From the IMG/VR virus record IMGVR_UViG_3300021255_000131, positions 32,001 to 96,000 of that record: a stretch of 64,000 nt of DNA. One strand, written 5' to 3'. Shown piece by piece: positions 17,376 to 42,606 of this stretch (positions are counted from its first letter, which is position 1; each line of letters starts with the position of its first letter). The notes below the pieces were generated by a model. That model did not search any database. It saw nothing but the letters and a program-made list of their open reading frames with translations, and was not told where the DNA came from. The translations under genes and the position numbers were made by a program. Source of the DNA: a virus (lineage: Duplodnaviria > Caudoviricetes).

Positions 17376-17433
17376 AATTGTTTTCTCCTTTTTCGTTGGC
17401 TGATTTGTTTTTGAGAAGGGACCATTCTCTTCT

Positions 17434-17461
17434 CATATATATCCATTCTTGAATGTCGACA
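17434..17461 (-). promoter_or_regulatory. 28-bp conserved element, copy 1 (candidate phage RNAP promoter)
   Basis: TGTCGACATTCAAGAATGGATATATATG on minus strand, identical to 41248-41275; upstream of ssb/primase/dnaE block. Confidence 0.7.
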
Positions 17462-21404: not shown

Positions 21405-21484
21405 GAAACCACCTCTTTTGAAAAGTAAAGCGGCATGTGCCGCTGGGTGCATCCGCGCTGACTTTTGCGCGGATGTAGGAAATA

Positions 21485-26896: not shown

Positions 26897-27103
26897 TCAG
26901 CCTCCGAGCATTTGAAAATGCTTCTTCTCTGTCGTCGTGTCTTCCGGCACCTTTCTGAGCTGCGAGGCGCGGAAGTATCGCTTTCCTCCCAACTGGTTGC
27001 GGCAGGTGTAATAAACGTCTCCGTCCTGTCCGGTGTCTATGACCTCGTAAATGTCACCGGTGGCCACGTATAAAACCGCATCTCCGTTCTGATACCTTCT
27101 CAT
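26897..27103 (-). CDS. small SH3/KOW-like family protein
   Basis: YQNGDAV...HFQMLGG. Confidence 0.55.
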   Translation of the reverse strand: MRRYQNGDAVLYVATGDIYEVIDTGQDGDVYYTCRNQLGGKRYFRASQLRKVPEDTTTEKKHFQMLGG

Positions 27104-27387
27104 ACAAGCATTCCTTCAAATTCTTCGGCCGTGACGGGGTCTTCCGTTTCCGGTGGGACAAACATGTAATCGGCCCAGTAAAACGGGCATTCCTCGAGCG
27201 TGTATGAATCCGGATGCACGTGTTGAATGGTCATTTCCTGGCCTCGGTAGTCGAGCATATCGCTGACGACGGACGGACCAAAATCGAGATCGTCGGTCAG
27301 GTCCGTTCTGACGACAACTTTATCGCCGACCTGAAACAGATCGGCATTGGCATGTTCCAAACAATATTCATCTGTCAATTCAGGCAT
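27100..27387 (-). CDS. small SH3/KOW-like family protein
   Basis: FQVGDKVVVR...WADYMF...EEFEGMLV. Confidence 0.7.
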   Translation of the reverse strand: MPELTDEYCLEHANADLFQVGDKVVVRTDLTDDLDFGPSVVSDMLDYRGQEMTIQHVHPDSYTLEECPFYWADYMFVPPETEDPVTAEEFEGMLV

Positions 27388-27444
27388 ATTTGCTCCTTCA
27401 TGAATCGTGTTGTTAGAAAAGATCTCCTTCGTGATATCCGGCGT

Positions 27445-27741
27445 TCACAGCAGCATGGCTTCAAACTCAGTCATGGAAACGTCTTCTTCGGGCGGTACCA
27501 GCATATAATCCTGCCAGTAGTAGGTTCGTATACGACAATCTTCGCCGCTCAGACGATAATAGACACCCTTTCTCTGGGCGACGAAGGCTGGTTGTCCCGA
27601 CAACTCGGTCATTAGCTCAGTGACGACCTTGCCATACGGCATCCTTTTTATCAGGTCCGGTCTGATGACAACGGCGTCTCCGACCTGAAACCATTCCGCT
27701 TTGCAGTGCGCTTGACAATAATCCGGTGTTAATTTTTCCAT
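27445..27741 (-). CDS. small SH3/KOW-like family protein
   Basis: FQVGDAVVIR...WQDYML...EFEAMLL. Confidence 0.7.
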   Translation of the reverse strand: MEKLTPDYCQAHCKAEWFQVGDAVVIRPDLIKRMPYGKVVTELMTELSGQPAFVAQRKGVYYRLSGEDCRIRTYYWQDYMLVPPEEDVSMTEFEAMLL

Positions 27742-27755
27742 TGTTACCTCCGAAA

Positions 27756-27829
27756 TAGGGCTTCTTGGACTCGAACCAAGGACCTGCGCTTTATAAGAGC
27801 GCTGCTCTGACCTGCTGAGCTAAAGCCCC
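27756..27829 (-). tRNA. tRNA-Ile(TAT)
   Basis: GGGGCTT acceptor, AGCTCAG D-arm, gcgct-CTTATAA-agcgc anticodon arm, GGTTCGAGTCC; no encoded CCA. Confidence 0.85.
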
Positions 27830-27832
27830 GGA

Positions 27833-27903
27833 CTGAGGCGGCGGGAGTTGAACCTGCGATGCGGGAGTCAAAGTCCCGTGCCTTACCGTTTGGCGACGCC
27901 TCA
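27833..27903 (-). tRNA. tRNA-Gln(TTG)
   Basis: TGAGGCG acceptor, cggga-CTTTGAC-tcccg, GGTTCAACTCC. Confidence 0.88.
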
Positions 27904-27944
27904 ATAAAAAGAGCCTGCGTGCCGAACCTATAGCACGCAGGCTT
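27904..27944 (-). terminator. Rho-independent terminator-like hairpin inside tRNA cluster
   Basis: agcctgcgtgc/gcacgcaggct stem followed by T tract on minus strand. Confidence 0.55.
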
Positions 27945-27982
27945 GCGCAGAAAGGATTGCTGACTTGTTTCACATCAGCAAC

Positions 27983-28058
27983 TGGTGGAGACTGGCGGAA
28001 TTGAACCGCCGGCTTCCTGCTTGCAAAGCAGGCGCTCTGCTAACTGAGTTAAGTCCCC
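27983..28058 (-). tRNA. tRNA-Ala(TGC)
   Basis: GGGGACT acceptor with G3:U70, cctgc-TTTGCAA-gcagg, encoded CCA. Confidence 0.92.
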
Positions 28059-28158
28059 ACGTGCACCGGTTAGATTATAGCGCCCAAACCGGTGCCAAAA
28101 CGACGTACAGAAGTGCCGGTCATGACTCCGGCATACTGCCCCCTGTAAGGCAGCATCT

Positions 28159-28228
28159 TAGACCCTGCCTGACTCGAACAGGCGCATAAGCCATACTCGC
28201 TTCGCTCTGCCAACTGAGCTAAGGATCC
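28159..28228 (-). tRNA. tRNA-like RNA with aberrant anticodon arm
   Basis: Normal acceptor, D and T arms; anticodon arm aagc-GAGTATG-gctt lacks U33. Confidence 0.6.
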
Positions 28229-28479
28229 ATATGCGCGTAAACCTCACCGATGTAAACCGCGCCGCTGCGTTCTTACGTCTGCCGACTTCTTCGCTTTTGC
28301 TCCATTAGCAGATCAAACGTCAGCTTTAACCGCTTCTCTCTTGTGCGGAGGTTTTGTTTGCAACGCTGCAAACAAGGTGTGGGATTGGATCAAAGGCAAG
28401 ACTAATTGCGCAACCCAAGCCTTCTGTTCCAACGGCGTTGCGCGTGAGCTGCGCCATTTTCCGGCAGCTCGTCCCGACG

Positions 28480-28552
28480 AGGCCCCTGCGTGACTTGAAC
28501 ACGCGACAAGCTGGTTAACAGCCAGCTGCTCTGCCAGCTGAGCTAAGGGGCC
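28480..28552 (-). tRNA. tRNA-Asn(GTT)
   Basis: GGCCCCT acceptor, gctgg-CTGTTAA-ccagc, GTTCAAGTC. Confidence 0.88.
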
Positions 28553-28555
28553 ATG

Positions 28556-28771
28556 TTACAGCATTTGAAAAAATTCGGATTCTTCTACGGGGGCGCACAG
28601 ATAATCGAAATCGTCGTCTTCGACCCAATACTTGCCACCGGGGCCGTCAACAAAGATGTTACTGCCATTGACCTCCAGGACCGTGCCGATCCAGCCCGTT
28701 TTTGTAATCGAATAATAAACCGACGCTTTTTCGTTGCCGACGACCTCGTCGCCTATAGAAAATTTAGGCAT
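28556..28771 (-). CDS. small SH3/KOW-like family protein
   Basis: FSIGDEVVG...EFFQML. Confidence 0.7.
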   Translation of the reverse strand: MPKFSIGDEVVGNEKASVYYSITKTGWIGTVLEVNGSNIFVDGPGGKYWVEDDDFDYLCAPVEESEFFQML

Positions 28772-28943
28772 AGAAGACTCCTTTCAAAAAAGATCTCGCC
28801 CGGGGACGTAAGTTATTGTGGAACCGTCCCCGGACTTGCAGTCACACTGCCATGGCCTGTTTATCCTGCGGCATTTATGGACTGTGCCGTAAACCTCGCG
28901 TTGCATCCGAGCTCAACGCATGCTCTGAAAGGAGGTAATCACA

Positions 28944-29007
28944 TGGCTCCCTGCCCGAGTCGAACGGGCTATTCCAATATGGCGTGTCGTCGTAACACTA
29001 TGGGAGC
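28944..29007 (-). tRNA. truncated tRNA-like RNA (vestigial anticodon arm)
   Basis: GCTCCC/GGGAGC acceptor, gtgt/acac D-stem, gcccg-TTCGACT-cgggc T-arm, only cca-TAT-tgg in between; 64 nt. Confidence 0.55.
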
Positions 29008-29264
29008 ATGGCGGTGAATTCCTCTATGTCGACATCATTATATGGCGAAAAATACTCATCGTGCGTTAATTGAAAAGTCTTTCCGTTGGCCCAGCGGTAG
29101 CAATATTCGCCGCAGTCATACCTTAAGAATACGACGGGATAATTCGTTTCGTCCAGCAGCATCCTGGCGAAGCCAGGGTTCATACCTTCTCCTCTGGAGG
29201 TGCGTCTACTGGCCGCGCATTCGCGGCCGTAGTCGTTAAGGATCAAAAGATCTCCTGTTTCCAT
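28998..29264 (-). CDS. small SH3/KOW-like family protein
   Basis: METGDLLIL...EEFTAMLP. Confidence 0.65.
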   Translation of the reverse strand: METGDLLILNDYGRECAASRRTSRGEGMNPGFARMLLDETNYPVVFLRYDCGEYCYRWANGKTFQLTHDEYFSPYNDVDIEEFTAMLP

Positions 29265-29273
29265 ACAAACTCC

Positions 29274-29546
29274 TTATAGCAATTTTAAAAAATCATCTTC
29301 AGCAGCCTCTTCGACGTACGGTATGATATAATGACCTTCGAGCCCCAGACAATAATATGAGCCTATGTGTTCTGCCAATTCAAAGCACCCATCTTGCACT
29401 TTGGTGATCATCAGCGGCTTTCCGTTGGCGAAATCTCGTCCGAGTTTGAGTTTTTCCGCTGAAAAACTGCTCATGTAAATTTGTCTGACGTGAGCTGCTT
29501 CTTCCGGTTTTACTACAACCATATCGCCAACTTTTAATTTTTCCAT
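29274..29546 (-). CDS. small SH3/KOW-like family protein
   Basis: LKVGDMVVVK...DDFLKLL; start after GGAG at ATG 29546. Confidence 0.65.
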   Translation of the reverse strand: MEKLKVGDMVVVKPEEAAHVRQIYMSSFSAEKLKLGRDFANGKPLMITKVQDGCFELAEHIGSYYCLGLEGHYIIPYVEEAAEDDFLKLL

Positions 29547-29636
29547 TATTTCGTCTCCAGTCGCGGGTTTATAAATTTTAAAAAGCGTCATTACGGCAAG
29601 ACAGCTTGGCAAAGCAGTGGTAACTTCGGCCACGGT

Positions 29637-29677
29637 AAAAAAGCCGGGATAGCCCAGGAGGAGGGAGCTATCCCGGC
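29637..29677 (-). terminator. Rho-independent terminator
   Basis: gccgggatagc/gctatcccggc stem plus T tract on minus strand. Confidence 0.65.
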
Positions 29678-29757
29678 AACGGTGAGGAGGTGATGCGCTC
29701 TTGTACGGCTTGACCGACGTTGACGGTCGCGGCCGCATAAAAAGGCGGAGCTGCCTT

Positions 29758-29865
29758 TCACAGCTCCGCGTCGTCGTCAAGTTCTTCAGCGTCTTCGAAG
29801 AGCGCCTCCGCGATATAGAAGGCCTCTATATCCTCAAAGGAGGCGTTTTCGCTGTACGGATCCAT
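29758..29865 (-). CDS. 35-aa highly acidic peptide
   Basis: MDPYSENASFEDIEAFYIAEALFEDAEELDDDAEL, starts 4 nt after ssb stop. Confidence 0.5.
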   Translation of the reverse strand: MDPYSENASFEDIEAFYIAEALFEDAEELDDDAEL

Positions 29866-29869
29866 CTGC

Positions 29870-30274
29870 TTAGCCGAACGGGAACTCGTCGGGCTCCTCG
29901 GTCGCGGGAGCGGGAGCCGCGGGGGCTTCCTCGCCGTCACGCTTCTGCGCAGACAGGAACTCGAAGTTCTGGATGACGTTGATTTCGGGGCTGGCACGCC
30001 AGGACCCATCCTGCGTGGACTGATAGACCGACACCTTCAGCGGGCCTTCGACGAGCACCTGGGTGCCCTTCTTCAGGTACGGAGCGGTGTTGGTGGCCTG
30101 ATTGCGCCACATGGTGCAGCGGACATAGGTGACGGGGCGCTGGCCCTGTTCGTCACGGCGGCCGGAGTTAGCGGCGACGGTGAATGTGCACACGGGCGTC
30201 TGCACGCCAGAAACATTGCGGTTGACCAGCACAGCGTCATTGGTCAGATGTCCTACGATGGTGAGCTTATTCAT
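29870..30274 (-). CDS. ssb: second single-stranded DNA-binding protein
   Basis: MNKLTIVGHL, FTVAAN, YLKKGTQVLVEG, DEFPF near C-terminus. Confidence 0.9.
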   Translation of the reverse strand: MNKLTIVGHLTNDAVLVNRNVSGVQTPVCTFTVAANSGRRDEQGQRPVTYVRCTMWRNQATNTAPYLKKGTQVLVEGPLKVSVYQSTQDGSWRASPEINVIQNFEFLSAQKRDGEEAPAAPAPATEEPDEFPFG

Positions 30275-30509
30275 GTGATACCTCTTTCTGCCCGGCTAAC
30301 GGGCGTGATCAATATTGGCGTAAGCCGAAGTTTTAGAACCTGTAGCAGGTTCAAAATATATCGTTTAGCGCCGGAGCATTCGTCTGCAGCGCTTAACGAG
30401 CGTATTTGCCGGCCGCGGAAATTGTTTTCTTTTCCCGCAAACCTTTCATCATGGCTGCGGCCCGTCCCCGGGCCGCCCTGCTGGCGTAAAGACCAGCTGG
30501 GGAGGGGCG

Positions 30510-30689
30510 TCAGGCTTTCAATAAGCCGGTCGCAGGAAGCGGCGCTTTCTCGCCGAGATATTTGCTGAGCGTTCTGGCGATCTTGAGCCACGCTTCTCTG
30601 TCGTGTTCTTCCCTGGCGATCTTGTTGAGCACGCAGCCCATCGTCGGGTCGAGCTGCTTGGAGCCGTTGTAATACAAGCTTTTATCCAT
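30510..30689 (-). CDS. small hypothetical protein
   Basis: MDKSLYYNGSKQLDPT after AAAGGAG. Confidence 0.6.
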   Translation of the reverse strand: MDKSLYYNGSKQLDPTMGCVLNKIAREEHDREAWLKIARTLSKYLGEKAPLPATGLLKA

Positions 30690-30858
30690 ACGACAATCTC
30701 CTTTCAGGCTACGTAAACCTTTCATCCTGGCTGCGCGGCGTCCCCGCCGCGCCCTGCTGGCGTAACAACTGCCGGGCAGCGAAAATAAAGCACTTGTGCC
30801 GGCTTTCTATGGTTAAAAAAGTGAACTTAAAATGCGAAAAATGTAACAGAAATTTAAC

Positions 30859-30887
30859 TTGACAGCGATTTTTCGCGGCAGTATAAT
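30859..30887 (+). promoter_or_regulatory. consensus sigmaA promoter
   Basis: TTGACA-17-TATAAT, AT-rich upstream element. Confidence 0.8.
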
Positions 30888-31040
30888 GGAATCCCGAGAA
30901 AAACCACCATGGTGCCGCCCGTCCTCGGGCGGCGTTGCCAAGAAGATAGAAACGAGCCAAGCAAGAACAGTGAACATTAGCTTGGCCGGCTTAAGGCGAG
31001 ATATGGTTATAAACATGTATAATCTGGTACCAGAAAATAC

Positions 31041-31076
31041 TGTCGACATTCAAGAATCGATATATATGGAAAGAGA
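31041..31076 (+). promoter_or_regulatory. 28-bp conserved element, copy 2
   Basis: TGTCGACATTCAAGAATCGATATATATG-GAAAGAGA; one mismatch in 36 bp versus 41248-41283. Confidence 0.7.
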
Positions 31077-31637
31077 AGCCCAAAACGCAGAAGTACGCGA
31101 ATCGCGTGAAGCGCGATTCGCCTGATAACTACACGACGGTTAAAAGATAACCGAAGTGAAGCTGACAGGACGGCATTGAATAAAGCGTCGTTCCCATGGA
31201 AGGAACGACGCGCTGAAACAGTGAAAACTTAGGCTTGAAGAGAAACGCAGGACCTGCATAACAGGACCTGCAATGAAAAATATCTCCCGTCGCCCATGGA
31301 AGGCGACGGGAGGGTGATGAAGATAACATGTCTAAAGAAAGAAAAGAACCTCGAAGCTGACACGCTGAAGTCAAAAGAAAGAAACGAACTTTCTTTCTTT
31401 TCAGGCACGATGAAGATAACTACAGAGGGTAGAGAGATAACACCTCCTCGATATAGGAATAAAAAAGGAATCAAAAGGACAAAACTGTGAAAGAACTACT
31501 CGTGCTTCTGAGTAAACACAAGATATTGTATCCGATTCCCCTCCTTTCTACTACATCTTGATATATCTCCAATATTGCTGATATATCACCTCTTTTCCTG
31601 TTATCGTTCGGCATGGTTTTAAGTTAGCAGTGTAAAT

Positions 31638-31672
31638 AGGGGAGCGCCGGTGAAGCGCTCCCCTTATTTTTT
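31638..31672. terminator. probable bidirectional terminator
   Basis: aggggagcgc/gcgctcccct stem with T tract on + strand, right after stop of minus-strand gene. Confidence 0.65.
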
Positions 31673-31973
31673 ACATATGCACGTCGTAGCCTTTCAGCCA
31701 GTCAGGATTCACCGCCATTGTATCCGCTAACACGGTGAACTTGTCATCTTTCGGGCAGTACTTTTCATGTTCGTAGTTGTAGACATCCTGGTATGAAATT
31801 CTGATGCCGGATCCGTTGGCTTTCAGGTTTGCCATTTTGACGAGCTGTATTCTGGACATGGGCTTACCGTCAACACCGTGCATCGTTCTCCACTGGATAG
31901 AGCGTTGGCCGAGCGTAGCAACTTTGTGGGTGGACACTCTGCGATAGGCTACCGAATTGTAGGGATACATCAT
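31671..31973 (-). CDS. XRE-family HTH regulator
   Basis: ISYQDVYNYEHEKYCPK...LADTMAVNPDWLKG. Confidence 0.75.
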   Translation of the reverse strand: MMYPYNSVAYRRVSTHKVATLGQRSIQWRTMHGVDGKPMSRIQLVKMANLKANGSGIRISYQDVYNYEHEKYCPKDDKFTVLADTMAVNPDWLKGYDVHM

Positions 31974-31988
31974 AATACGTTTCCTCCT

Positions 31989-32399
31989 TTACGGGCGCGG
32001 CAGTGATACTGCGTTCCATTCACGGGCAAGAGACTCGCCTTTGGCTTTCGACCAGATATAGCCTATTAGCCGGCTGTCGTTGGTAGCATGGTTGGTCCAG
32101 CCGACACGATACGCTGATTCGGGCATGATGGCGTGATCATACTTGCCGATTTCACGGACGTCTCCTTCATCGAAGACGATCTCGTGAAACACGGGCTTGA
32201 AGATTGTACGATCGTACTTGTTATCGGCGTGCGATGGGAACTGGATGAACATCGATCTGTCATTGACGATCTGCGTGCGGTATTCGGTGTCACTGACCTT
32301 GTGAAATTCACCAAGTCCTTTTGCTCCGGACATTGCTGTGACGATACTCATCACGTCCGGTTCATCAATCTCTGGTACGACGACTACTTTTCTCTCCAT
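31989..32399 (-). CDS. hypothetical protein
   Basis: 136 aa ORF with AAAGGAG. Confidence 0.65.
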   Translation of the reverse strand: MERKVVVVPEIDEPDVMSIVTAMSGAKGLGEFHKVSDTEYRTQIVNDRSMFIQFPSHADNKYDRTIFKPVFHEIVFDEGDVREIGKYDHAIMPESAYRVGWTNHATNDSRLIGYIWSKAKGESLAREWNAVSLPRP

Positions 32400-32477
32400 A
32401 AAAAACTCCTTTCAAACCTGAAGTTAAATATCATCATGGTCCCCGCCCGTTTCCGGGCGGGGCAGTGAACAGCCTCG

Positions 32478-32825
32478 TTACGGACGATTGTAGCGCGCGG
32501 TGCTGACTTCCGCGACGCGGCGGGTGACGATGAGTTTGCTGGATCCATAGCCGCAGAGCCAGGACGTGCTGACGCCCATGACCTTGCACAGGACGGTCAT
32601 GTTGTTCATCTTCGGCGTGCAGCGGTTGTGCACGTACGAGTTGATGATGGACTTGCTGAAGTTGACGCCGTAGTGGCGGCCATAGACGTTGCAGGCCCTG
32701 GTGAGCTCCGCCTGCGTCGTGCCGGTCTGGATGAGCCAGGCCTTGATGCGATCACCGATATACTCGGTGCGTTTGGTGTAACCGTGTTCCATCTTCTGCC
32801 ACGAGCAACTGTAAGGCTTATTCAT
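32478..32825 (-). CDS. XRE-family HTH regulator
   Basis: TQAELT...SKSIINSYVHNRCTP...GVSTSWLCG. Confidence 0.8.
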   Translation of the reverse strand: MNKPYSCSWQKMEHGYTKRTEYIGDRIKAWLIQTGTTQAELTRACNVYGRHYGVNFSKSIINSYVHNRCTPKMNNMTVLCKVMGVSTSWLCGYGSSKLIVTRRVAEVSTARYNRP

Positions 32826-32998
32826 GTGTGTTACCTCCCAAGATTATTGAAGTGATGACTTCACCATGGCGCCGCCCGTCCTCGGGCGGCATTCAGCATC
32901 AGCCTGCTGAACCAGGCTTCGAACGGTCAACAGGCATGTTACGAGAAAAAATATAGGGCCCCGCAAAAATAGGGGACCCTCATACATAGACGGTGTGC

Positions 32999-33466
32999 TT
33001 ACTTAACGGGCGTCACTTCGATCAACTGTAGTTTCGCCAGATCACGCTGGGCGCAGGCTTCCTCGTCGCAGCGCTCGTTCAGGGGATGACCGGCATGACC
33101 CTTCACTTTAGTGAAGGTAACCTGATGGATGTCAAGCTGGTTCTTGAGCGCGGTCCAGAGATCGACATTCTGGACAGGCTTCTTATCCGCCTTGACCCAG
33201 TTGTTGGCGATCCACTTGTCTAAGTAGCCGCCGTTGATCTGGTCGACGATATAGGCCGAGTCCGTGAGGACTTCAACTTCACAGGGAAAATGGAGCTCCT
33301 TGAGGCCGCGCACGACGGCTCTCAGCTCCATGCGGTTGTTGGTGGTCTGTGGGCTATTGCCGGAGACCATCATTTCACGGTCTTGACACTGCAGGATCGC
33401 GCACCAGCCCCCGGGGCCTGGATTGCCGGAGCACGCGCCGTCTGTAGCGATGGTCACGTGATACAT
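32999..33466 (-). CDS. rnhA: ribonuclease HI
   Basis: TDGACSGNPGPGGW, TTNNRMEL, TDSAY, VQNVDLW, VKGHAGHPLNERCD. Confidence 0.95.
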   Translation of the reverse strand: MYHVTIATDGACSGNPGPGGWCAILQCQDREMMVSGNSPQTTNNRMELRAVVRGLKELHFPCEVEVLTDSAYIVDQINGGYLDKWIANNWVKADKKPVQNVDLWTALKNQLDIHQVTFTKVKGHAGHPLNERCDEEACAQRDLAKLQLIEVTPVK

Positions 33467-34289
33467 AAGATGTCCTCCTTAACGAAAATCGCGGCGGACC
33501 CTTTGCGGGTGCCGCCGCTTGTTGTAATTGAGACGCCAGCGCGGGAAGCGCTGACGCAGATTCCAGATGGCTTCAGTAGATTCGAGCCAGATGATGTCGC
33601 CGAGGATCAGGATGGTCAGGGCGGCGACGATGATGAACAGCGTCAGCATTTAGTCACCTCTTCGATGACGACGAAGCTGAAGCTTTCGCAGCGGCCCATT
33701 GTGGTGACCCAGTCATAACGAAGCTCGGCGTTGTGTCTGGTTTCGTCATAACCGTGAATAATGAATCTACCGTCGGACAGATACTCGATGACTTTGAACA
33801 TATACAGATCCTCCTTCTGCATTGCAATAAAATAAGCGCTGTGTGGCCAGCGCTAACCCCGGCGAGGCTTTTCGGGTCACCGATCCCGCTGCGGTTTATC
33901 GCGGTACGCAGGATATACCGGAAGAGCCTTACGTCTTCAGCCCGGTTGGCCAAAGGCGTAAAACTATTCATCATGGCCGCGCGCCGTCCTCGGCGCGCAT
34001 CTTGGGATACATTTTGCCGGAGAGTGACGATGCACAAACACCGCACAGACCGGACAGGAGTGCAATAATGCATTCGCCATGGCCGCGCGGTGTCCCCAAC
34101 GCGCTTAGCTTGGAAGTGAAGACGTCCAGCAACGCTCATAAATTGTAAGGATAGAAAGACGTCATCATAGAGGCAGGCAAGAATATGGGGAAACGCGGAG
34201 AGCTGGATCAGCCTGCATAAATTATGCAGAAAATTCGACAGGAATCACGCTTCAGCACCCGGAGACAGCACGCAGATGAAAACAGCGAG

Positions 34290-34470
34290 ATCGGGAGGTG
34301 GCGGAGCGGAGGCGAAGCCGAAGCGGAGCCCGTGAAGCGCAAAGCGACGACACGGGATACGGGACCGACAGACGCAGCACCCGGAAGCAAGCTTGAGAGT
34401 GAACCCAAGTAAGCAATGCGAAGCGAAGGCCGGCGAAGCCGTGACGCAGCGGAGCGAGCGAAGCGGGAAA
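34290..34470 (+). repeat. cluster of GCGRAGC mini-hairpin motifs in purine-skewed intergenic DNA
   Basis: Repeated gcggagc/gcgaagc/ggcgaagcc. Confidence 0.55.
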
Positions 34471-34583
34471 AATATGGGGCCCGGAAAAAAGGGGAGGCCC
34501 GCTCGTGGTGCAATGCCTGTCTTGACGGCGCAGGCAGGGCCGGAGCAGTTTAACGACGTGCTCAGGTCGGCTTGACTTAATGA

Positions 34584-34700
34584 TTAATCTGTGCTATCAT
34601 CGGGCTGGAGGTACTCACGGTATTCTTCTTCTGTCGCGAAGAGAATCCACTCGTCACCAACGAGCCCCATGTAGCCGCTTGCGGTGGAGTAGCCGTACAT
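34584..34700 (-). CDS. small phage protein
   Basis: MYGYSTASGYMGLVGDEWILFATEEEYREYL after AAAGGAGG. Confidence 0.65.
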   Translation of the reverse strand: MYGYSTASGYMGLVGDEWILFATEEEYREYLQPDDSTD

Positions 34701-34810
34701 GGAGAACCTCCTTTCCGCCGGATGTTGCTGCATCCGGCTTATTTTATTTTGAGCCTGGGGCTCACTCGCAGGCCGCAACGCGGCGGCCCGTGGTGTGAGA
34801 CTCAGACGAA

Positions 34811-36034
34811 TTACAGGTCGTCAGCGACGCAAAGAGAATAAAGAGAATTATATGGATCAACTGCTGCCGCTTTGCTGTCGTAAAGATAACGCCATTCTTC
34901 TTTCTCAGTACAGCCGCTCATTTCGACATAATAACTATCGTTGCGTACATATTCGTCTCTGATGTAGTAAGAACGACCGTCGACGCAGATTTCAAACGGC
35001 TCACCCTCGAAGAAATATCTGTCTTCAGGTTTGAAGGATTTCAGAAAAGAATCCAATATTTCTTCAAGTTCGTCGGACAGATCGATGTCGCAATGAGTCC
35101 ACGATTCTTTCAGAGAAAAGACATGAAAGATCGCGTTCAATGCATAATCTTTATTTGCTTTGTCGAAGTTAAAAGAATGCACTTCGACATAGCTCTGATT
35201 GCGAGAATCGGTATTTTCAAGCATGCTGAACGTAATCATTGCAACGTGGGCTTTATTCAGCTCGCTGAAGTACTTGACAGCCTTTTCCTTGGTCGCATAG
35301 CGCAGATCCATATAACCGTCTAGGATCCGATCATCCACGCGAACAATGTGATACAGGCCATCCGGGTCCTGGTCAAGGAACGAAGCGTCTTCAATGAGAT
35401 CAAGATTGATCGCTTCTTCAACGGACTGTTCCTGTACAGGCTCAATGCTATCGACAGCATCCATGTCATCAATGGCGTCGTTCATTTCGTCGATCGCTGC
35501 GTCGATGTCAATGTCAGGCGTTTCGGATTCCGGCATAGGCGCGACGCCCGCTTTTGGGGCGGGCGTCGGCTGGAGCTGGTCAGCATGGATGCTGTAGCCG
35601 GCCCACTTCGGGCCGCAGTTGTCGGCGGTGACGATCTGGCCGTCCCGGCTCAGGAACACTGGATAGCCGGCATGCAGACCATGCACATAGATCGTGGCGG
35701 CTTCCATGGAGTTGTTCGTCGTCTTGCTATAAACACGGCGGCCGGTCTTGATCTTGACTTCGTAGATGTGGGCGAAGCATACGCCGGTGATAGCCTGGGT
35801 GAGGGACATAGTGTAGTTCGCGGGGTTGGCGGTGTAAACATGGCGTCCTGTCTTAGTCGTCAAGATGACGCAGGCACGGATTACGGACGGTTCGCCGTCA
35901 GTGCCATACTCGATCATGACTCGGTCTGATTTGATCAACTGATCCATCTGGCGATACGCCTCCATAACGGAAGGCAGGTCATTCATAACGATTTTAATAC
36001 CGTATTTGTTGTTATAGCCGATGCTGATAGACAT
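34811..36034 (-). CDS. hypothetical early protein with acidic linker
   Basis: AAGGAGG before ATG 36034; about 407 aa. Confidence 0.75.
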   Translation of the reverse strand: MSISIGYNNKYGIKIVMNDLPSVMEAYRQMDQLIKSDRVMIEYGTDGEPSVIRACVILTTKTGRHVYTANPANYTMSLTQAITGVCFAHIYEVKIKTGRRVYSKTTNNSMEAATIYVHGLHAGYPVFLSRDGQIVTADNCGPKWAGYSIHADQLQPTPAPKAGVAPMPESETPDIDIDAAIDEMNDAIDDMDAVDSIEPVQEQSVEEAINLDLIEDASFLDQDPDGLYHIVRVDDRILDGYMDLRYATKEKAVKYFSELNKAHVAMITFSMLENTDSRNQSYVEVHSFNFDKANKDYALNAIFHVFSLKESWTHCDIDLSDELEEILDSFLKSFKPEDRYFFEGEPFEICVDGRSYYIRDEYVRNDSYYVEMSGCTEKEEWRYLYDSKAAAVDPYNSLYSLCVADDL

Positions 36035-36096
36035 AATGATTTCCTCCTTGTAATCTGATATTTTTTGTTGTATAATCACCCGCAGGGGGTGGTATC

Positions 36097-36267
36097 ATGG
36101 AAGAATTCGATACTCAGGCGCTGCAGGAAGAGAAAGCTCTTGCAGACATCGAGAAATCGCAAAAAGTACGCAAACTTAAACTTCTGAAAGATCAGAAGCT
36201 TCTCGAGCTCGAAGCCATCGAAGCGATGCTCAGCGAGCTCGAGAAAGACGAGGATTACCCCTTCTGA
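36097..36267 (+). CDS. 56-aa helical peptide ending DEDYPF
   Basis: Not in ORF track. Promoter TTGTAA-17-TATAAT (36048-36076), SD AGGGGG; converges on RNAP-2 stop. Confidence 0.65.
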   Translation: MEEFDTQALQEEKALADIEKSQKVRKLKLLKDQKLLELEAIEAMLSELEKDEDYPF

Positions 36268-39081
36268 TCAGAAGTCCATCCCAGCCAGCCAGGAAGGTAA
36301 TGCTGCCTTCCTGGCCTTTTCTTCGTGCGCTTCAACGCATTCCTGGCGGAACGTCTTCTCCGGAATAACGGCGGGCAGTATGGTACGCTCCTGTTTGTTT
36401 TCAGCGAGGATATCGCCGAAGCACTCCAGAATCGCCATCAGGTGACGCGCGGCGAACTTCTTGTTCCATTTGTCGTGGGCATGCGCCACATGCTGACGCA
36501 GAATCGCGGCGGCAGTCCAGCGAGCCAGCTCGTCGTCGGACATGTTGCCCTTATTGACACCTTGCATGAACGCAAGCGTCTCGTCGCGGACGTACTTGTA
36601 AGCGCTCAGCATTGCCTCTTCGTATTCAGCCGCTTCAAACGACGCTTTCGCGATCTTCTGGACTGCGCTGCTCAAAGTTTCGAACAAGAAGTAGATCGAA
36701 TATTTTGTGTCTGCTGCGAAGACCTCCTTGCCGAGCATGTCGTTGTATTCCTTGACCTTTTCAGCAGGAAGCACGTCGTTGCGCACCATGCGCACGTTTG
36801 CGCTGCAGCCGCCAGGCATCGCGATTTCCCAGCGGTAATCGATCTTACTGAAGTCCGGCGCCCACTCGGAACCGCCGATGATCAGGTTGACCTGGTGGCC
36901 GAACCGATCTACGATGGACTCTGATTCGGGCAGGGTTTTCTCGTCCCATCTCTGGTCGTTCCAAGGAGTTTCATCACAGTGTTTTGCAAACCGCTGGTTG
37001 TAAGGCATCGCGTTATAGTTTTGCCCGACGGTGCGAGCGATTTCCCGGAGCGCCTGCGGAAGCACGCCCGTCTTGATGTAGTCCAGAATCAGGATGGTCA
37101 GCACGTGCGGGATCGCCGCAGTTTCCAGGATGCCGCTGATGACGGAAGGATCCATGTCGATCCTGCAATCGTTCAGGATCTTGGTGCAGAGGTTGGAGTA
37201 GACGCCAACCTCGTTGTACCGTTCAGCGTCGATCATCATCTGAGCAGTCTGATTCTGCCACTCGTCCGTCTTGGGCAGCTTGCCCTTGGGTGCTTTGTCG
37301 TGGTCGAAGATCACGCAGGGCGGATTGACGCGATTGATGACTCGCTCCATCAGGGAGACGAGCAGCGGATTCGAGGACCAGAAGCCCTCGTCTCCGTCGT
37401 TGTCACCGTCCCAGTAGCCGGACAGAACAGTGCTGTTCCACGGCAGGATCATCATGTTGCCGCAAACGGCGAGCTCATCGTGCACCTCTACGTGAAGCAC
37501 ACGAGCGTTCAGCAGGTTGGCGGGATGGCGAATACCATAGATTTTCCGGCCATTTTCTACGCCGGTGACGCAGCAGGTCTTGCTGCTGTTGAAGACGCCG
37601 ATCTTCTCCTTGGCCGGGTCCTTGCCAAAGACCCAGACGTCGATCAGGGCGTAGGGGTCCATAGCAATATATTCATAATGAGATTCTTCGATTGCAGGCG
37701 AGATCATTGCGTCTGCGTACTTGTTGTTAAACAGGTCTTCCAGGTGGTTGATGATGTCTTGATTTGCCACATAGTCCGGGAAAGCGCGGAAGAACTTGGC
37801 GGCGTTGCCGCATTCCTCCTCGTCGGCCCAGGGTTTTTGTAGTTCCTTTACACAGCCTTCAACTGTTTTCAGCTGCTTTACGCAAATGGCCTTAGACGTA
37901 CCGAGCTTCCTAAGCTCGGCGTTGCTGGTGTAGACCAGCTCCTGCAGCGCCTGGCGGGAGAGATTTCGTTTGTCGCCTTCTGCCTTGTTGGCGAAGCCGC
38001 ACACACGCAGCTCATCGATGCCGAGGGTTTCGAACGTGGTCCGATAGTCGTCGAGGCTATCAAACCATTTGAGGCCTTTGCAGCACGACTCGCTGAGAAT
38101 GATATAGATACCATCAGTCGAGCGCCAAATGCCCTGATAATCTTTGATCTTATCCGGTATATTCTCGACGATGGCGACGACGGCCATTGTCTTGTTGGTG
38201 CCGAGGCGACCCTGAAGGGAGAGGAAATTCTTGGTATCCTCGAGGCTACGAGCGATGATTACGGACTGACCGTCGGCGATTGTTGCGTCCTCTTCGGATT
38301 CGGGAACGTATTTGATTGCGCCGGTTTTGGCGTCAATTTTCAACACGTTGGTATACTTCAACTGCCAGTTGAAGTCCTTAACGATGATCGCGTTCTTCAA
38401 CGCTATCTTCTTCAAACCAAACCGACTGACCGGCACGCTGCCGGAGAACAGCGTGCTAAGTACTTTGTTGTATTCTACGGGGTTGGTGCCCCTGTCGAAC
38501 TGCTCCTTGGTGCGGAGCAGCGCGAGCTCCTTCTTGTATTTGGCCTGAATGTCGACGCGAATAAGAAGAGATTTGCCGACCTTCAGGTAGGAAGGCGTTG
38601 AACACAAGTATTTCCAAACAAGCTGGCCAGACTGGATGCCCAGCTTCTGCAGGTTCTTGCCGACCTGCTTTTTGATTTGGCCGACAAGGAAGAAATATTG
38701 TTTTGCTTGATCCGCTGTGAAGTGGATTTCACAATTGAATTTCAGAAGGTTGTATAAGTGGTGTTCGAGTACGACGACGCTGTCGTCGAATTTATCGTAC
38801 TCAATGTGGAGCATATCAGCTCCAGCGGATTCATCCATTGTAATGACCTTGGGGTCATCAATGGAAATGGTGTAGGGAACGGTGCGCTCCCGCTCCAGCT
38901 TCAGGATTTGCTGGGCGGCAGAGATCATTTTCTGGCAGATGTTGTCTTTCGAGTATAACGCTTTATTGAAGATGTCTGTCTCTTCCTTCGGGAAGAAGGC
39001 GGCCTGGCTGAAGGACCAGGTCATATAATGTTGTTTATTCAGGGCGGGAGCTTCAATGGCGCGTTCGATAACCTTAGACAT
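36268..39081 (-). CDS. second YonO-like single-chain RNA polymerase (RNAP-2)
   Basis: IADGQS...LQGR..NK, LSRQALQEL, IRHPAN, WDGDNDGD (37390-37410), VGVYSN, LDYIKTG. Confidence 0.75.
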   Translation of the reverse strand: MSKVIERAIEAPALNKQHYMTWSFSQAAFFPKEETDIFNKALYSKDNICQKMISAAQQILKLERERTVPYTISIDDPKVITMDESAGADMLHIEYDKFDDSVVVLEHHLYNLLKFNCEIHFTADQAKQYFFLVGQIKKQVGKNLQKLGIQSGQLVWKYLCSTPSYLKVGKSLLIRVDIQAKYKKELALLRTKEQFDRGTNPVEYNKVLSTLFSGSVPVSRFGLKKIALKNAIIVKDFNWQLKYTNVLKIDAKTGAIKYVPESEEDATIADGQSVIIARSLEDTKNFLSLQGRLGTNKTMAVVAIVENIPDKIKDYQGIWRSTDGIYIILSESCCKGLKWFDSLDDYRTTFETLGIDELRVCGFANKAEGDKRNLSRQALQELVYTSNAELRKLGTSKAICVKQLKTVEGCVKELQKPWADEEECGNAAKFFRAFPDYVANQDIINHLEDLFNNKYADAMISPAIEESHYEYIAMDPYALIDVWVFGKDPAKEKIGVFNSSKTCCVTGVENGRKIYGIRHPANLLNARVLHVEVHDELAVCGNMMILPWNSTVLSGYWDGDNDGDEGFWSSNPLLVSLMERVINRVNPPCVIFDHDKAPKGKLPKTDEWQNQTAQMMIDAERYNEVGVYSNLCTKILNDCRIDMDPSVISGILETAAIPHVLTILILDYIKTGVLPQALREIARTVGQNYNAMPYNQRFAKHCDETPWNDQRWDEKTLPESESIVDRFGHQVNLIIGGSEWAPDFSKIDYRWEIAMPGGCSANVRMVRNDVLPAEKVKEYNDMLGKEVFAADTKYSIYFLFETLSSAVQKIAKASFEAAEYEEAMLSAYKYVRDETLAFMQGVNKGNMSDDELARWTAAAILRQHVAHAHDKWNKKFAARHLMAILECFGDILAENKQERTILPAVIPEKTFRQECVEAHEEKARKAALPSWLAGMDF

Positions 39082-39102
39082 AGTTTTCCTCCTTATGCGG
39101 TA

Positions 39103-39225
39103 TTGACCGCGTTTTCATTTTGTCGTATAATAGTGAACGGGGTGCGTTGATGAGTTAACGTTACTACAGTGGTATAATGTTTTCACCTCCCTGCCGGGTG
39201 CTGCTGACACCCGGCTTTTTGTTTT
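39103..39225 (+). ncRNA. candidate small RNA with sigmaA promoter and terminator
   Basis: TTGACC-17-TATAAT (39103-39131); gccgggtg/cacccggc stem + T tract at about 39193-39225. Confidence 0.55.
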
Positions 39226-39257
39226 ATGTGAAGAGCCTAAGGCTCGCTGAGGTGTGC

Positions 39258-39680
39258 TTATTGGCAAACAGAATCTATATATCTCAAGTTATCTTTTGTT
39301 GTTTTGCTATCTTCGGCAGAAATACAAAATGGAAAAGAGCAGCCTGCCATATTGTCTAAATATTCTGCATAATCTTTATCATGTTCTTCGGACAATATTT
39401 TTTCTTTTACTGCTATTTCTTTAGCGATAGAATATTCTTTGTCTTTGAATGTGCCGATGTTTTTAATGTTGTTGTTTATAGTTATAACAATATACTCGCG
39501 GTTCAACTCATCATACTCACCGAAGTACCATTCTCCATCAAGCATCGCTGCTATGCTTGATATTTTGAATGTTCTGGGCAACGCGCCCATTGAGATGAAT
39601 CCTTTTGCCATGGCAGAGGCGGCTTCGAGGCCGATGGTGCTCCAGGCTTTGTTGATTGCTCCGATTCTCCAATTTTTCAT
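39258..39680 (-). CDS. hypothetical early protein
   Basis: AAGGAGG SD, AT-rich. Confidence 0.7.
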   Translation of the reverse strand: MKNWRIGAINKAWSTIGLEAASAMAKGFISMGALPRTFKISSIAAMLDGEWYFGEYDELNREYIVITINNNIKNIGTFKDKEYSIAKEIAVKEKILSEEHDKDYAEYLDNMAGCSFPFCISAEDSKTTKDNLRYIDSVCQ

Positions 39681-39778
39681 AAGGTTTCCTCCTTCTGCTG
39701 TTTAACGCACAGCTGCATATTATTCGAGCAAGCGCCCGTATCTGCCCACCGCATGGATGGGCAGAAGCTGGTGCTTGA

Positions 39779-40468
39779 TTACTTTATGGCCGTGTATTCG
39801 CCACGGTGCTTCTCGATACAAGATAGTAATTCTTGCATCGAATCGAATTGCCAATCGATATCACATCCCATTAGTCCATCCCAGCCTCCGACATCTGTTG
39901 TGCTATCTCCGCGCATGACATATTTTTCGCGGATCTTGTAAACACGACCACTTCCTTCATAATGGCAATAGTTGTGGCAACACACTTGGCCATAAGATAC
40001 GGAAATACTTCCTTCCGTATAAGACCATTTGAATTTGCCTAAAAGCTGCCGATTTAATCTGTCTGCAACAGCTTCGCACGTTCTTTCCAGATATTCGCTT
40101 CCAATCTTTTTCCATGCTTCAAAGAAACCTTCGTTGTAGAATCTTGAAGTTTCTTCAATCCATGCGTCGTACTCCTTTCCATGCGTTTCTTGCTCGTAGA
40201 AAAGACTCTTATAGAAATTAATTATTCTGTATCCGCAACCTCTCGCATAATACTCATCAAGGTCAACGGAAATGAATATTGCTTGTTGCAGCTTAAACCG
40301 TTCGTACTTGAATTTATCGGACTCCACATCGAAGAAATCAATTTCTTCTTTGTTTCCGCAATATGTTTTTCCGACGTAAAATATTTTTGCAAAGTACACC
40401 GTGTCGTCGTTCTCGTCCACATAGGACTTGGTTGCCCACCACGTGAGCTTTTCGAATACTTGTTTCAT
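39779..40468 (-). CDS. hypothetical early protein
   Basis: AAGGAGG SD, AT-rich. Confidence 0.7.
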   Translation of the reverse strand: MKQVFEKLTWWATKSYVDENDDTVYFAKIFYVGKTYCGNKEEIDFFDVESDKFKYERFKLQQAIFISVDLDEYYARGCGYRIINFYKSLFYEQETHGKEYDAWIEETSRFYNEGFFEAWKKIGSEYLERTCEAVADRLNRQLLGKFKWSYTEGSISVSYGQVCCHNYCHYEGSGRVYKIREKYVMRGDSTTDVGGWDGLMGCDIDWQFDSMQELLSCIEKHRGEYTAIK

Positions 40469-41247
40469 AATGTTTCCTCCTTGCGGCTGTGCCGATAATC
40501 GTTGTTTGAAGGTTAAATTTAAGAATCTATAATCAGCATATTGATTAAGATTCTTAACCTTCGATTGAATAATATATCATGACGGCCAAAGTGTAAAGGA
40601 CAACTTTTGCCGTTGATACAGGGAACATCAGCGAACAAATCTGATGTGTTATCAGGATAATTCGCCGATGTGCGAGGACTCGTCAAGCGATTTGTCAAGA
40701 TGGAACTTTTCATGAAGCCAACTTAACAAATGCTTAACATTTTGCTCGATACAGTTTCGCGTTCCGTTTCGGCTCATGCCATCATCGGGTCTCGGACTCT
40801 TACCGAGACGACGGAATTGCCCTTGACGGCAGCGGTTTTTTGTGCTACCATCAAGGGCGGAGGGGTTTACGGTCGCGTATAACGACGTGACCGACGCGTA
40901 GAGACGTTCGTCAACGTCTCTGAGTACCCGTTAAGGTACTCAACCTCGGCTGTGCGAGCCGAGAGCCAACGGATCTTGCGCACTTGACCGAGTGCGCAGG
41001 CTAATGCATACAGCGTGTCAGCGCTGTCATGCACCAGGCGCTGTTTGTCAGCGCGTCCTGGCTTGGCGCCTGAGTCCACCATGAAGCCAAGGTTATTCAA
41101 TGGACATTGCATCCGCCGGGCACCCCACCCATTTACGCTGAAAACATAAACGAGGGAGAAAACCCAACAAATTTGTTCTTCTCTAAGTCCCTTCTCTAAG
41201 TCTCTTCTAACCGTGCTCAGCACGGTCTTTTTTATTGCCAAAAAACA

Positions 41248-41283
41248 TGTCGACATTCAAGAATGGATATATATGGAAAGAGA
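41248..41283 (+). promoter_or_regulatory. 28-bp conserved element, copy 3, at head of morphogenesis operon
   Basis: TGTCGACATTCAAGAATGGATATATATG-GAAAGAGA, about 50 bp before first late gene. Confidence 0.75.
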
Positions 41284-41330
41284 CGAGGGTCTCTGACCAA
41301 GATTTTATGATCAATTCAAGAGGTGTTTTT

Positions 41331-41717
41331 ATGCAGAACAAAACCTATGAGAACAACACGTACGTTGCTCAGCGTCCCGCCTATGGATTCAATCAACCGC
41401 CAAAGCAGGCGTATGATATGGAGTACGGCACGCAGAGCAGAAAAGAATTTGAGTATCTGAAAGATCATGGCATGCTGCCCGTGTTCGTTAAGAAATCCGA
41501 ATACGGCATCAAGACCTACAAGTACACGAAGACGCCGGCTTTATTTAAACTCCTTGTCGATTACTTCACCGCTGTTAAAGCCGAGAAGGAATACGATAAG
41601 TTGAACCGTGAGATCGAAAATAACAAGACTCCTCTGTCCGAAGAAGAGGAGCATGAGATTATCGATTCTCTGATTGATCGCGGCGCTCCGATTCGGAAGG
41701 CGCGTATCTATGCCTAA
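41331..41717 (+). CDS. hypothetical late protein
   Basis: AAGAGGTG before ATG 41331. Confidence 0.7.
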   Translation: MQNKTYENNTYVAQRPAYGFNQPPKQAYDMEYGTQSRKEFEYLKDHGMLPVFVKKSEYGIKTYKYTKTPALFKLLVDYFTAVKAEKEYDKLNREIENNKTPLSEEEEHEIIDSLIDRGAPIRKARIYA

Positions 41718-42606
41718 TGTTACTGAGTCAAAACCGAAGCGTATACCGAAGCCGCCGCAGACAAAGCTCTGTCTTAAGTGCGGCCGGGTAAAGCCTATCG
41801 CCGACTACTACGTCAACCGAGACTGGGAAGACCAGCTCGGCAAAGACATTTGGTGCAAGGATTGTGTCAATCGTTGTTCTTCCAAAGACGAAGTGCGTGA
41901 GTACTTTTGGGAGAACCATCGCGAATGGAATGATCGTATCTGGCAGAAAGCCGAGGAACGCGCTGAGAAGCTGGCCGCCAACAACACGGTTTATCAGAAA
42001 GCAAACGATGACCGTAGGCGCATCCTGCTTGAAAAACTTACATGTCAGCAAGTGCCGGCAGTGATGGGCGTCTATTACAAATACATTGATAACGGAGAAG
42101 ACGGCAAGACGATTACCTATGCGGAAGCGAAAGAAAATGGACAGATCGTAGAAGAAGCCGATCCTAATGTCAAAACGTACAGCCACAAGTTCAACGGGTA
42201 CTTTAAACCTAACGAGCTTGAATACCTTGAAGAATACTATGCCGGGCTTGAGGAAGACTTTGATCTTTCTGACACTAACCTTCGCGACATCGCACGCAAG
42301 CTCGCAAAGGCAAGCTTGCAAGCCGATAAAGCACAGGATGATTTCATGGCCGGCAAGTGCGATTACAGCGTCGTTAAAGACGCTATCTCTCAATTTGACT
42401 TATTGAGTAAGTCTGGTAACTTTGCCGCATGCAAACGCAAGCCTGGAGAAAATGCCGGCATGAGTTCCTGGTCGGAACTGACTCTGAAGCTTGAGACATC
42501 CGGACATCCTTGTACACGAAAGATTGAGTGGCCTAAGGACGATGTAGACAAAACGCTTGAAGAGTTCAAATACATTATTGAGGCTTTAGGTCTTGATCAG
42601 CAGTAG
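41710..42606 (+). CDS. Zn-finger protein, probable terminase small subunit
   Basis: CLKC...WCKDC; directly upstream of large terminase. Confidence 0.55.
   Translation: MPNVTESKPKRIPKPPQTKLCLKCGRVKPIADYYVNRDWEDQLGKDIWCKDCVNRCSSKDEVREYFWENHREWNDRIWQKAEERAEKLAANNTVYQKANDDRRRILLEKLTCQQVPAVMGVYYKYIDNGEDGKTITYAEAKENGQIVEEADPNVKTYSHKFNGYFKPNELEYLEEYYAGLEEDFDLSDTNLRDIARKLAKASLQADKAQDDFMAGKCDYSVVKDAISQFDLLSKSGNFAACKRKPGENAGMSSWSELTLKLETSGHPCTRKIEWPKDDVDKTLEEFKYIIEALGLDQQ

Follow-up and report, generated by a model that had tools for sequence, protein, structure and literature searches.

The locus

The DNA considered here is a window of 64,000 nucleotides (nt), bases 32001–96000 of the complete 111,048-bp IMG/VR virus record IMGVR_UViG_3300021255_000131, which represents an uncultured gut phage with 107-bp terminal repeats. 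The subject is a set of seven short hairpin elements, W1 to W7, each followed by a nine-base tail, which lie at 30446–34104 of the window and which may be promoters for a phage-encoded RNA polymerase (RNAP). A rightward arm of the genome starts at about 41332, with genes for an HNH endonuclease, large terminase and portal and with a giant tape-measure gene that begins at 59012. The leftward arm starts at about 41240 and holds, in order, two small genes, the polymerase gene RNAP-2, a gene for a protein of 422 amino acids (aa) and the stretch with the elements, W1 standing about 700 nt downstream of the end of the RNAP-2 operon. Past the elements come a single-stranded DNA-binding protein (SSB) gene at 29870–30274, tRNAs, a retron block, the polymerase gene RNAP-3, primase-helicase, exonuclease, DNA polymerase and NrdD.

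Seven hairpins with a common tail

The elements are all intergenic, lie on the minus strand and are co-oriented with the genes (Table 1). Each has a G/C-only stem of 8 bp (9 bp in W4), a four-base loop, a short spacer and a tail with the consensus CCAKGRTGA. A preliminary description of the window, made from the letters alone, had proposed these elements and most of their anatomy, and all seven are present where it placed them. The loop is RGGA with the single exception of W4 (GAAA), and the one imperfect copy is W1, where a T·C mismatch is the only departure from G/C pairs. The spacer, put at 1–2 nt, was found to be 0–2 nt depending on how a ninth pair is counted, and the tail, given as CCATGRYG, is CCATGRTGA in five of the seven copies, W1 and W6 having variants. 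The shared orientation and the lack of U tracts hold throughout: no U tract was found after any element by reading of the sequence, and a terminator scan picks up none of them. Folding of the elements as single-stranded DNA (ssDNA) gave −12 to −14 kcal/mol for both strands (for W1 and W2 see also Table 1).

Table 1. Elements and other features discussed in the text. Positions are those of the window unless another contig is named; bits are covariance-model scores.
Feature	Position	Strand	Description	Context
W1	34074–34104	−	8-bp stem with one T·C mismatch, GGGA loop, 2-nt spacer, CCATGGCGA tail; 45.1 bits; ssDNA fold −7.3 kcal/mol	First of tandem pair with W2
W2	33968–33998	−	Perfect 8-bp stem, AGGA loop, CCATGATGA tail; 52.2 bits; fold −13.7 kcal/mol	106 nt past W1; 175 nt ahead of 52-aa gene
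W3	32861–32890	−	Perfect stem, AGGA loop; 50.9 bits	44 nt ahead of start (32825) of helix-turn-helix (HTH) gene; directly past RNase H terminator, no gene between
W4	32431–32462	−	9-bp stem, GAAA loop; 43.7 bits	Begins 12 nt past HTH stop codon; 40 nt ahead of 136-aa gene start (32399)
W5	30904–30933	−	Perfect stem, AGGA loop; 47.4 bits	Edge of 800-nt conserved non-coding block; 182 nt ahead of W6
W6	30722–30752	−	Perfect stem, GGGA loop, CCAGGATGA tail; 50.6 bits	41 nt ahead of 59-aa gene start (30689)
W7	30446–30476	−	Perfect stem, GGGA loop; 56.9 bits	180 nt ahead of SSB gene start (30274); begins 28 nt past a stop codon
Intrinsic terminator of RNase H gene	32946–32979	−	Hairpin and T run, read from sequence	Directly upstream of W3; kept in L004
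RNAP-2	36268–39081	−	937 aa, diverged YonO-like single-chain two-barrel RNA polymerase; phrog_8308, E 2.3e-22	Leftward arm
RNAP-3	18633–21452	−	YonO orthologue; phrog_8308, E 4.7e-176; Pfam RdRP	Leftward arm
Primase-helicase	14088–15938			Leftward arm
Second motif class, copy 1	41248–41283	+	About 35 nt, near-identical copies	Ahead of first structural-arm gene
Second motif class, copy 2	31041–31076	+	As above	Within 800-nt block
Second motif class, copy 3	17430–17461	−	As above	Ahead of minus-strand gene 16977–17375
Second motif class, copy 4	Genome 108798–108829, outside window	+	As above	Ahead of gene at 108.8 kb
Sigma-A-like promoter unit 1	39103–39215	+	Host-type promoter; same-strand intrinsic terminator about 85 nt on	Faces early genes
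Sigma-A-like promoter unit 2	34572–34738	+	As above; terminator about 130 nt on	Faces early genes
Sigma-A-like promoter unit 3	30859–31664	+	As above; terminator about 770 nt on	Faces early genes; faces W5 head-on
L009 motifs	L009 6609–6650, 7530–7570		Two covarying 10-bp hairpins, one shared loop, one shared tail
L020 motif	L020 3794–3835		One hairpin similar to those of L009
L006 motifs	L006 3997–4028, 4885–4916		Two copies of a linear 32-nt motif

The positions of the elements relative to genes follow a pattern. Among the 24 copies known from five phages (see below) the tail lies 33–51 nt ahead of a start codon in 11, 82 nt in two and 132–180 nt in four; in six others the next copy follows after 106–186 nt without an intervening gene, and one further copy runs off its contig. 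That several copies stand shortly upstream of minus-strand genes, as had been noted in the preliminary description, applies to W3, W4 and W6, at 40–44 nt. Neither a gene nor a ribosome-binding site lies behind W1, W5 or the element A6 of the related contig L004, and W1, W5 and W6 are preceded by long non-coding stretches. No copy lies upstream of the RNAP-2 operon.

These positions bear first on the possibility that the elements mark gene ends, where they would terminate, pause or antiterminate a phage polymerase unresponsive to ordinary U-tract terminators. W4 and its orthologues begin 3–12 nt past a stop codon, W7 begins close behind one as well, and in the Thermus phage P23-45 one class of conserved hairpin terminators is specific to a polymerase (PMC10770324). 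The elements, however, have no U tract, and where an intrinsic terminator has its U/T run every copy carries a CCAKGRTGA-type tail instead. Furthermore, W3 stands directly past a real terminator with no gene between, and W1, W5 and W6 lie behind non-coding sequence and not behind genes. For antitermination of the nut type, seven sites in 3.7 kb are too dense, and a boxA-like partner is missing. In phage lambda a nut site is a boxA with, behind it, a boxB stem of 5 bp whose pentaloop is GNRA-like, and one or two such sites lie behind the early promoters; the elements differ in having no upstream box conserved in all copies, loops of 4 nt, AGGA in place of GNRA, and seven sites. Altogether we find a gene-end function very improbable; antitermination, which the preliminary description had listed as an alternative, is less likely, as is plain termination. 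The absence of a U tract and the place of W3 behind a true intrinsic terminator count for promoters.

W6 and W7 have near-identical flanks and stems that differ at four of eight pairs. About half of all copies, these two included (30712–30765 and 30436–30489), show an additional box of 12–13 nt upstream, the first 7–8 bases of which are repeated in a downstream box in several copies. The shared boxes suggest that the elements spread through duplication of a unit some 55 nt long.

Specificity and covariation

A covariance model built from 18 copies was scanned against the whole 111-kb genome and returned exactly seven matches (43–57 bits), the next best reaching 14 bits. The elements are thereby the sole matches genome-wide, and all seven fall within 3.3% of the genome, in one 3.7-kb stretch on one strand. 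A strict pattern matched four times versus 0.16 expected, and against the six perfect copies seen, 200 second-order Markov genomes gave 0.025 on average and never more than 1. Rfam gave no element match in 27000–42000 at E up to 1, finding four tRNAs only. CCATG and CCATGG occur near expectation genome-wide, and the tail is therefore not a product of restriction-site bias.

Covariation was assessed on 26 distinct sequences comprising 208 stem cells. Pairing is kept in 98.6% of the cells while the stem sequences vary, in agreement with the preliminary description; six of the eight pairs have changes on both sides, no one-sided standard change occurs and G-U pairs are absent. The covariation score was reached by none of 500 shuffles, and every slid register is only 27–52% paired. 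The parts that stay fixed are both closing pairs, the loop GGA (RGGA in 24 of the 26) and the tail, in which two G residues are invariant. Since the stem is free in sequence provided that pairing holds, the elements are not read as a duplex operator, and a hairpin reading, in DNA or in RNA, is called for. An operator for a dimeric HTH protein was rejected on the same ground, as the half-sites differ between copies while the pairing stays. Also rejected was a leaderless mRNA or small open reading frame starting at the tail ATG, the frames being 7–35 codons long and unconserved, and the ATG being missing from W6 and one orthologue.

If the hairpin is read in RNA, it would form, with the single-stranded tail, a site in early transcripts that is bound or cut by a protein and that affects stability, processing or translation of the next gene. 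Candidate readers are a host CsrA-type regulator recognising the loop GGA, or an endonuclease of phage or host making stable 5′ or 3′ ends. CsrA sites have a loop GGA in an A/U-containing consensus, usually together with a second site at the ribosome-binding site. The elements resemble such CsrA/RsmA hairpins in presenting GGA in the loop of a short hairpin, and in many copies a GGA-containing Shine-Dalgarno sequence follows 25–40 nt downstream, as in two-site CsrA targets. RGGA was reportedly the loop of the high-affinity CsrA ligand obtained by Dubey et al. in 2005 through systematic evolution of ligands by exponential enrichment (SELEX). The co-orientation of all copies with transcription also suits an RNA signal, and stems of such stability could shield RNA ends. 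In contrast, long stems of eight G/C-only pairs are atypical of CsrA sites, the strictly conserved and unexplained tail at fixed spacing is outside any CsrA consensus, and W1, W5 and A6 of L004 have nothing behind them to regulate in the form of a gene or ribosome-binding site. The lack of G-U pairs, the lack of a CsrA gene in the phage and of an Rfam match, and stems too short for RNase III point the same way. An RNA-level function, which takes in the protein binding to the GGA loop and the processing raised in the preliminary description, is the main rival of the promoter reading, though in our judgement unlikely on balance.

Conservation in related phages

The phage group is rare, and relatives were obtained solely by exact-protein look-ups. 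IMG/VR yielded none via the 422-aa protein, RNAP-2 or an RNAP-2 alignment, INPHARED none for the region or RNAP-2, and the JGI metagenomes two short pieces only. The search of relatives, a check suggested in the preliminary description, added 17 copies to the seven of the genome, at equivalent gene heads in four related contigs. L004, syntenic over 18 kb, has seven elements at the same seven places, L013 six, L005 three and L001, in which RNAP-2 is 52% identical, one. The near-identical strains L014–L018 have the element set of the window, with W1 and W2 recombined into a single element in L015. Contigs of this phage or its near-identical strains derive from the runs SRR873598 and SRR873606 and the assemblies ERZ28612945, ERZ28612978, ERZ12302817 and ERZ12302822.

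In the alignment with L004 the elements outlast gene loss between W6 and W7 and gene insertion before W4. The region upstream of W1 has large indels, and W1 itself has exchanged its stem for another that pairs perfectly, its downstream flank being kept; the W5 sequence is identical. The loop of the W4 orthologues is GGGA or AGGA in L005 and L013, whereas L004 has TTGA, a degenerate form. The interval between elements 3 and 4 contains the HTH gene in the window, this gene and a 63-aa gene in L004, and only the 63-aa gene in L005 and L013.

Such rearrangements raise the question whether the elements are DNA signals outside transcription, either hairpins that load primase near an origin or recombination cassettes that shuffle early genes. 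Recombination between copies is clear from the W1/W2 fusion and from the intervening genes that were lost or swapped, W5 adjoins the conserved 800-nt non-coding block, a possible origin, and W1 lies behind a repeat array. Most copies, however, stand at fixed short distances before start codons and far from the non-coding block. That loop and tail are so strictly conserved from lineage to lineage indicates a protein that reads them, beyond mere recombination homology, and promoters present in several copies would be no less expected to cause shuffling as a side effect, as in the PeSL cassettes of T4-like phages (PMC2839356, PMC4122927). We give this explanation only a very slight chance.

In more distant contigs, with RNAP-2 about 32–35% identical (L006, L009, L019 and L020), the polymerase gene is followed by a long non-coding region that contains T-rich iterons, and behind it L006 and L009 retain the small genes and SSB. 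All four have lineage-specific motifs at the end of the iterons, found in L006 and L009 also about 35–45 nt before the first small gene (Table 1), and these positions at syntenic gene heads are comparable to those of the elements. The motifs in L009, L020 and L006 come after arrays of a 12-nt iteron, which lie behind the polymerase gene. The distant tails have a GGTGA or GGCGA core in common with the tail in the window, at a similar distance from the stem in L009, and hairpins with a GGTGA-containing tail occur in two of the distant contigs. Such a turnover of motifs with divergence of the polymerase is as expected if polymerase and promoter co-evolve.

The elements as candidate promoters

The elements exist, covary, cluster on one strand, head genes and persist in relatives. 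From their sequence and arrangement we infer that transcription starts at them, that they act as DNA and not as RNA, and which enzyme reads them. The reading we favour, at close to an even chance although short of it, is that the elements are structure-read promoters or start signals of early units, used by a sigma-less YonO-like polymerase of the phage, probably RNAP-2. The G/C palindrome would be extruded or melted into the hairpin of 8–9 bp, and the polymerase would read its shape together with the fixed parts, namely the two closing pairs and a loop with RGGA in the coding and TCCY in the template strand. The tail, 0–2 nt past the stem and with its two invariant G residues, would then set the start site, leaving leaders of about 30–45 nt ahead of most of the genes served.

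Stems that vary with full compensation while loop, closing pairs and tail stay fixed indicate recognition of shape and not a sequence-specific duplex operator. The six tandem copies without a gene between them fit tandem promoters better than RNA operators that serve one gene each. Further support comes from the positions before start codons, the presence of fixed parts on only one side of the hairpin, the fold energies of both DNA strands, the retention in relatives through flanking indels, the lack of a sigma factor and the location of the cluster directly downstream of the RNAP-2 gene, and promoters are the best single explanation of these observations. The preliminary description had offered promoters for RNAP-2 or for the virion polymerase; its promoter half thus stands as the best single explanation, and of its two readers RNAP-2 is favoured, by inference.

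No sigma70 region-2 domain is encoded in the phage genome. A profile for T7-like polymerases (PF00940) had no match in the genome, and it was silent in all control genomes too. The only phage polymerases identified are YonO-like enzymes of the two-barrel, cellular type. RNAP-3 is 35–37% identical to YonO of SPbeta and has matches in numerous phages of Bacillus and Clostridia. For RNAP-2 the GenBank phage collection gave no match, and its family counts only 88 cluster representatives among 1.8 billion proteins. The metal-binding motif of RNAP-2 is intact (DxDGD), YWDGDxDGDE being invariant across seven homologues, and with 21% identity across this motif RNAP-2 is, judged by sequence, a distant paralogue of RNAP-3. 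RNAP-3 is an alternative reader of the elements, but a role as late-gene polymerase is more likely for it. Counting a putative virion enzyme fused to the tape-measure protein, the phage appears to have three polymerases in total; BLASTP against RNAP-2 found nothing for the putative virion domain.

That virion enzyme may itself be considered as the reader, entering with the DNA as in N4. The cluster lies about 7–11 kb from the arm start, beside the HNH-terminase-portal block; if packaging resembles that of cos phages, this end would be the last to enter the capsid and the first to be injected. Besides SSB, the elements serve small genes of early or takeover type, and N4 provides the precedent (PMC4496689). 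Against it, no copy precedes the RNAP-2 operon, which would be the expected first target of an injected enzyme, as in P23-45; for this reason RNAP-2 is preferred, and we hold the virion enzyme to be an improbable reader.

Several points weigh against promoters read by RNAP-2. The compact spacing, with W4 so close behind a stop codon, also suits gene-end signals, and an RGGA hairpin loop is also the best-known CsrA-type RNA ligand. The missing G-U pairs are weak as a sign of action at the DNA level, because only three one-sided changes exist and none is G-T. A 5′-terminal hairpin in transcripts that would start at the tail, which would have been a sign of an RNA 5′ end there, is not enriched: with the first six bases taken from the tail, mean pairing was 0.42 versus 0.48 at 913 control sites, these being sites in the genome with the same five bases. 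Several copies looked as if they had such a 5′ stem, W3 and its L004 orthologue even with one compensatory pair, and this was dropped as evidence after the control comparison. The GGTGA likeness of the distant tails is a hint of 5 nt only and possibly due to chance. We know of no two-barrel polymerase demonstrated to read a hairpin, and no paper on hairpin promoters was found in the literature for the YonO-like or two-barrel class. The promoters known for the P23-45 polymerases are linear motifs (PMC10770324), and the promoter of YonO is undefined (PMC5467207). In the 1.7-kb yonN-yonK gap of SPbeta, which contains the YonO start site, no similar element was seen by eye, the published start not having been placed.

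Comparison with known systems

The one proven case of hairpin promoters is N4, where the early promoters P1–P3 are read by a T7-like single-subunit virion RNA polymerase (PMC4496689). The N4 hairpin has a stem of 5–7 bp and a 3-nt loop and is centred near −11, its extrusion depends on supercoiling and on SSB, and transcription starts a few nt past the stem (PMC4496689). The elements are similar in being short G/C-rich inverted repeats with variable but paired stem bases and with a fixed loop and part of the stem, and in forming a small cluster of like-oriented copies in front of early genes. Where N4 has its start site a few nt past the stem base, the elements have the fixed tail and a putative start, and the involvement of SSB in N4 is paralleled by the SSB gene behind W7. 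Differences are the longer stems (8–9 bp), the 4-nt loops in all 26 distinct copies, the other fixed tail, and a reader that is T7-like in N4 while only two-barrel, cell-type polymerases are identified here.

P23-45 has a tape-measure-fused virion polymerase and a free polymerase, gp64, with distinct promoter classes; the seven promoters of gp64 are G/C-rich, and the gp64 gene lies upstream of them (PMC10770324). Common to both phages are the fold class of the polymerases, the logic of the cascade and short phage-specific motifs that head early genes. The P23-45 motifs (its Supplementary Data 1), AT-rich or G/C-rich and directly upstream of mapped start sites, differ in being linear and stemless and bear no sequence resemblance to the elements, and P23-45 has two phage polymerases where three are apparently present here.

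For Bacillus phage 0305phi8-36, which has a PF05183-type polymerase and no sigma factor, 21-bp candidate promoters were proposed in 2007 (PMC2147016). There too a repeated motif in promoter-sized gaps was attributed to the phage polymerase; the motif is linear, no hairpin was reported, and lineage and sequence are other than here. In the PeSL cassettes a host sigma-70 early promoter is coupled to a stem-loop resembling a terminator (PMC2839356, PMC4122927). As repeated cassettes they flank small early genes and act as recombination points for the gain, loss and swap of genes, which is mirrored here in the fusion of W1 with W2, the loss of a gene from between W6 and W7, and the differing genes between elements 3 and 4. 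In contrast to PeSL the elements contain no sigma-type promoter and no U tract.

For the YonO-like and related single-chain phage polymerases of the two-barrel type, promoters have yet to be defined, P23-45 alone having mapped motifs. One may speculate further that RNAP-2, a two-barrel enzyme, reads its promoters as DNA hairpins in convergence with the T7-like N4 enzyme, and that it does so within a cascade of three polymerases with one signal class each: hairpin and tail for RNAP-2, the linear 35-nt motif (e.g. 41248–41283) for RNAP-3, and another signal for the putative virion enzyme. This extended scheme we consider doubtful. If the hairpins are promoters, shape-based promoter recognition would have evolved twice, in unrelated polymerase folds, and an uncultured phage would have supplied a compact promoter-polymerase pair, a useful expression tool made of a sigma-free orthogonal polymerase of about 100 kDa and a 30-nt promoter.

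Neighbouring non-coding features

The second motif class, of about 35 nt, occurs in four near-identical copies (Table 1), three of which lie about 20–55 nt ahead of a start codon. We regard it as a candidate promoter of long linear type for a further polymerase, which may be RNAP-3.

Three host-type sigma-A-like promoters on the plus strand face the early genes, and each is followed by an intrinsic terminator on the same strand. One of them matches the consensus at 12 of 12 positions and is conserved in L004. These units are candidates for antisense or small RNAs.

The 800-nt non-coding block at 30800–31660 is 93–97% identical to L004, above the level of the neighbouring genes. It contains T-rich repeats, a copy of the second motif class and two terminators, and is possibly an origin or a non-coding RNA. 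Two terminator hairpins on the minus strand (31284–31312 and 31185–31211) have different stems, a common loop containing CCATG, which is also the core of the element tail, and then T runs, and the second of them has one loop change in L004.

A cassette at 34536–34751 on the minus strand has an A-rich run and a hairpin in addition to a ribosome-binding site with a tiny gene of 38 aa, and its hairpin is terminator-like when read on the opposite strand. The cassette is absent from L004 and is found three times in L001 (at 1047, 2448 and 6950).

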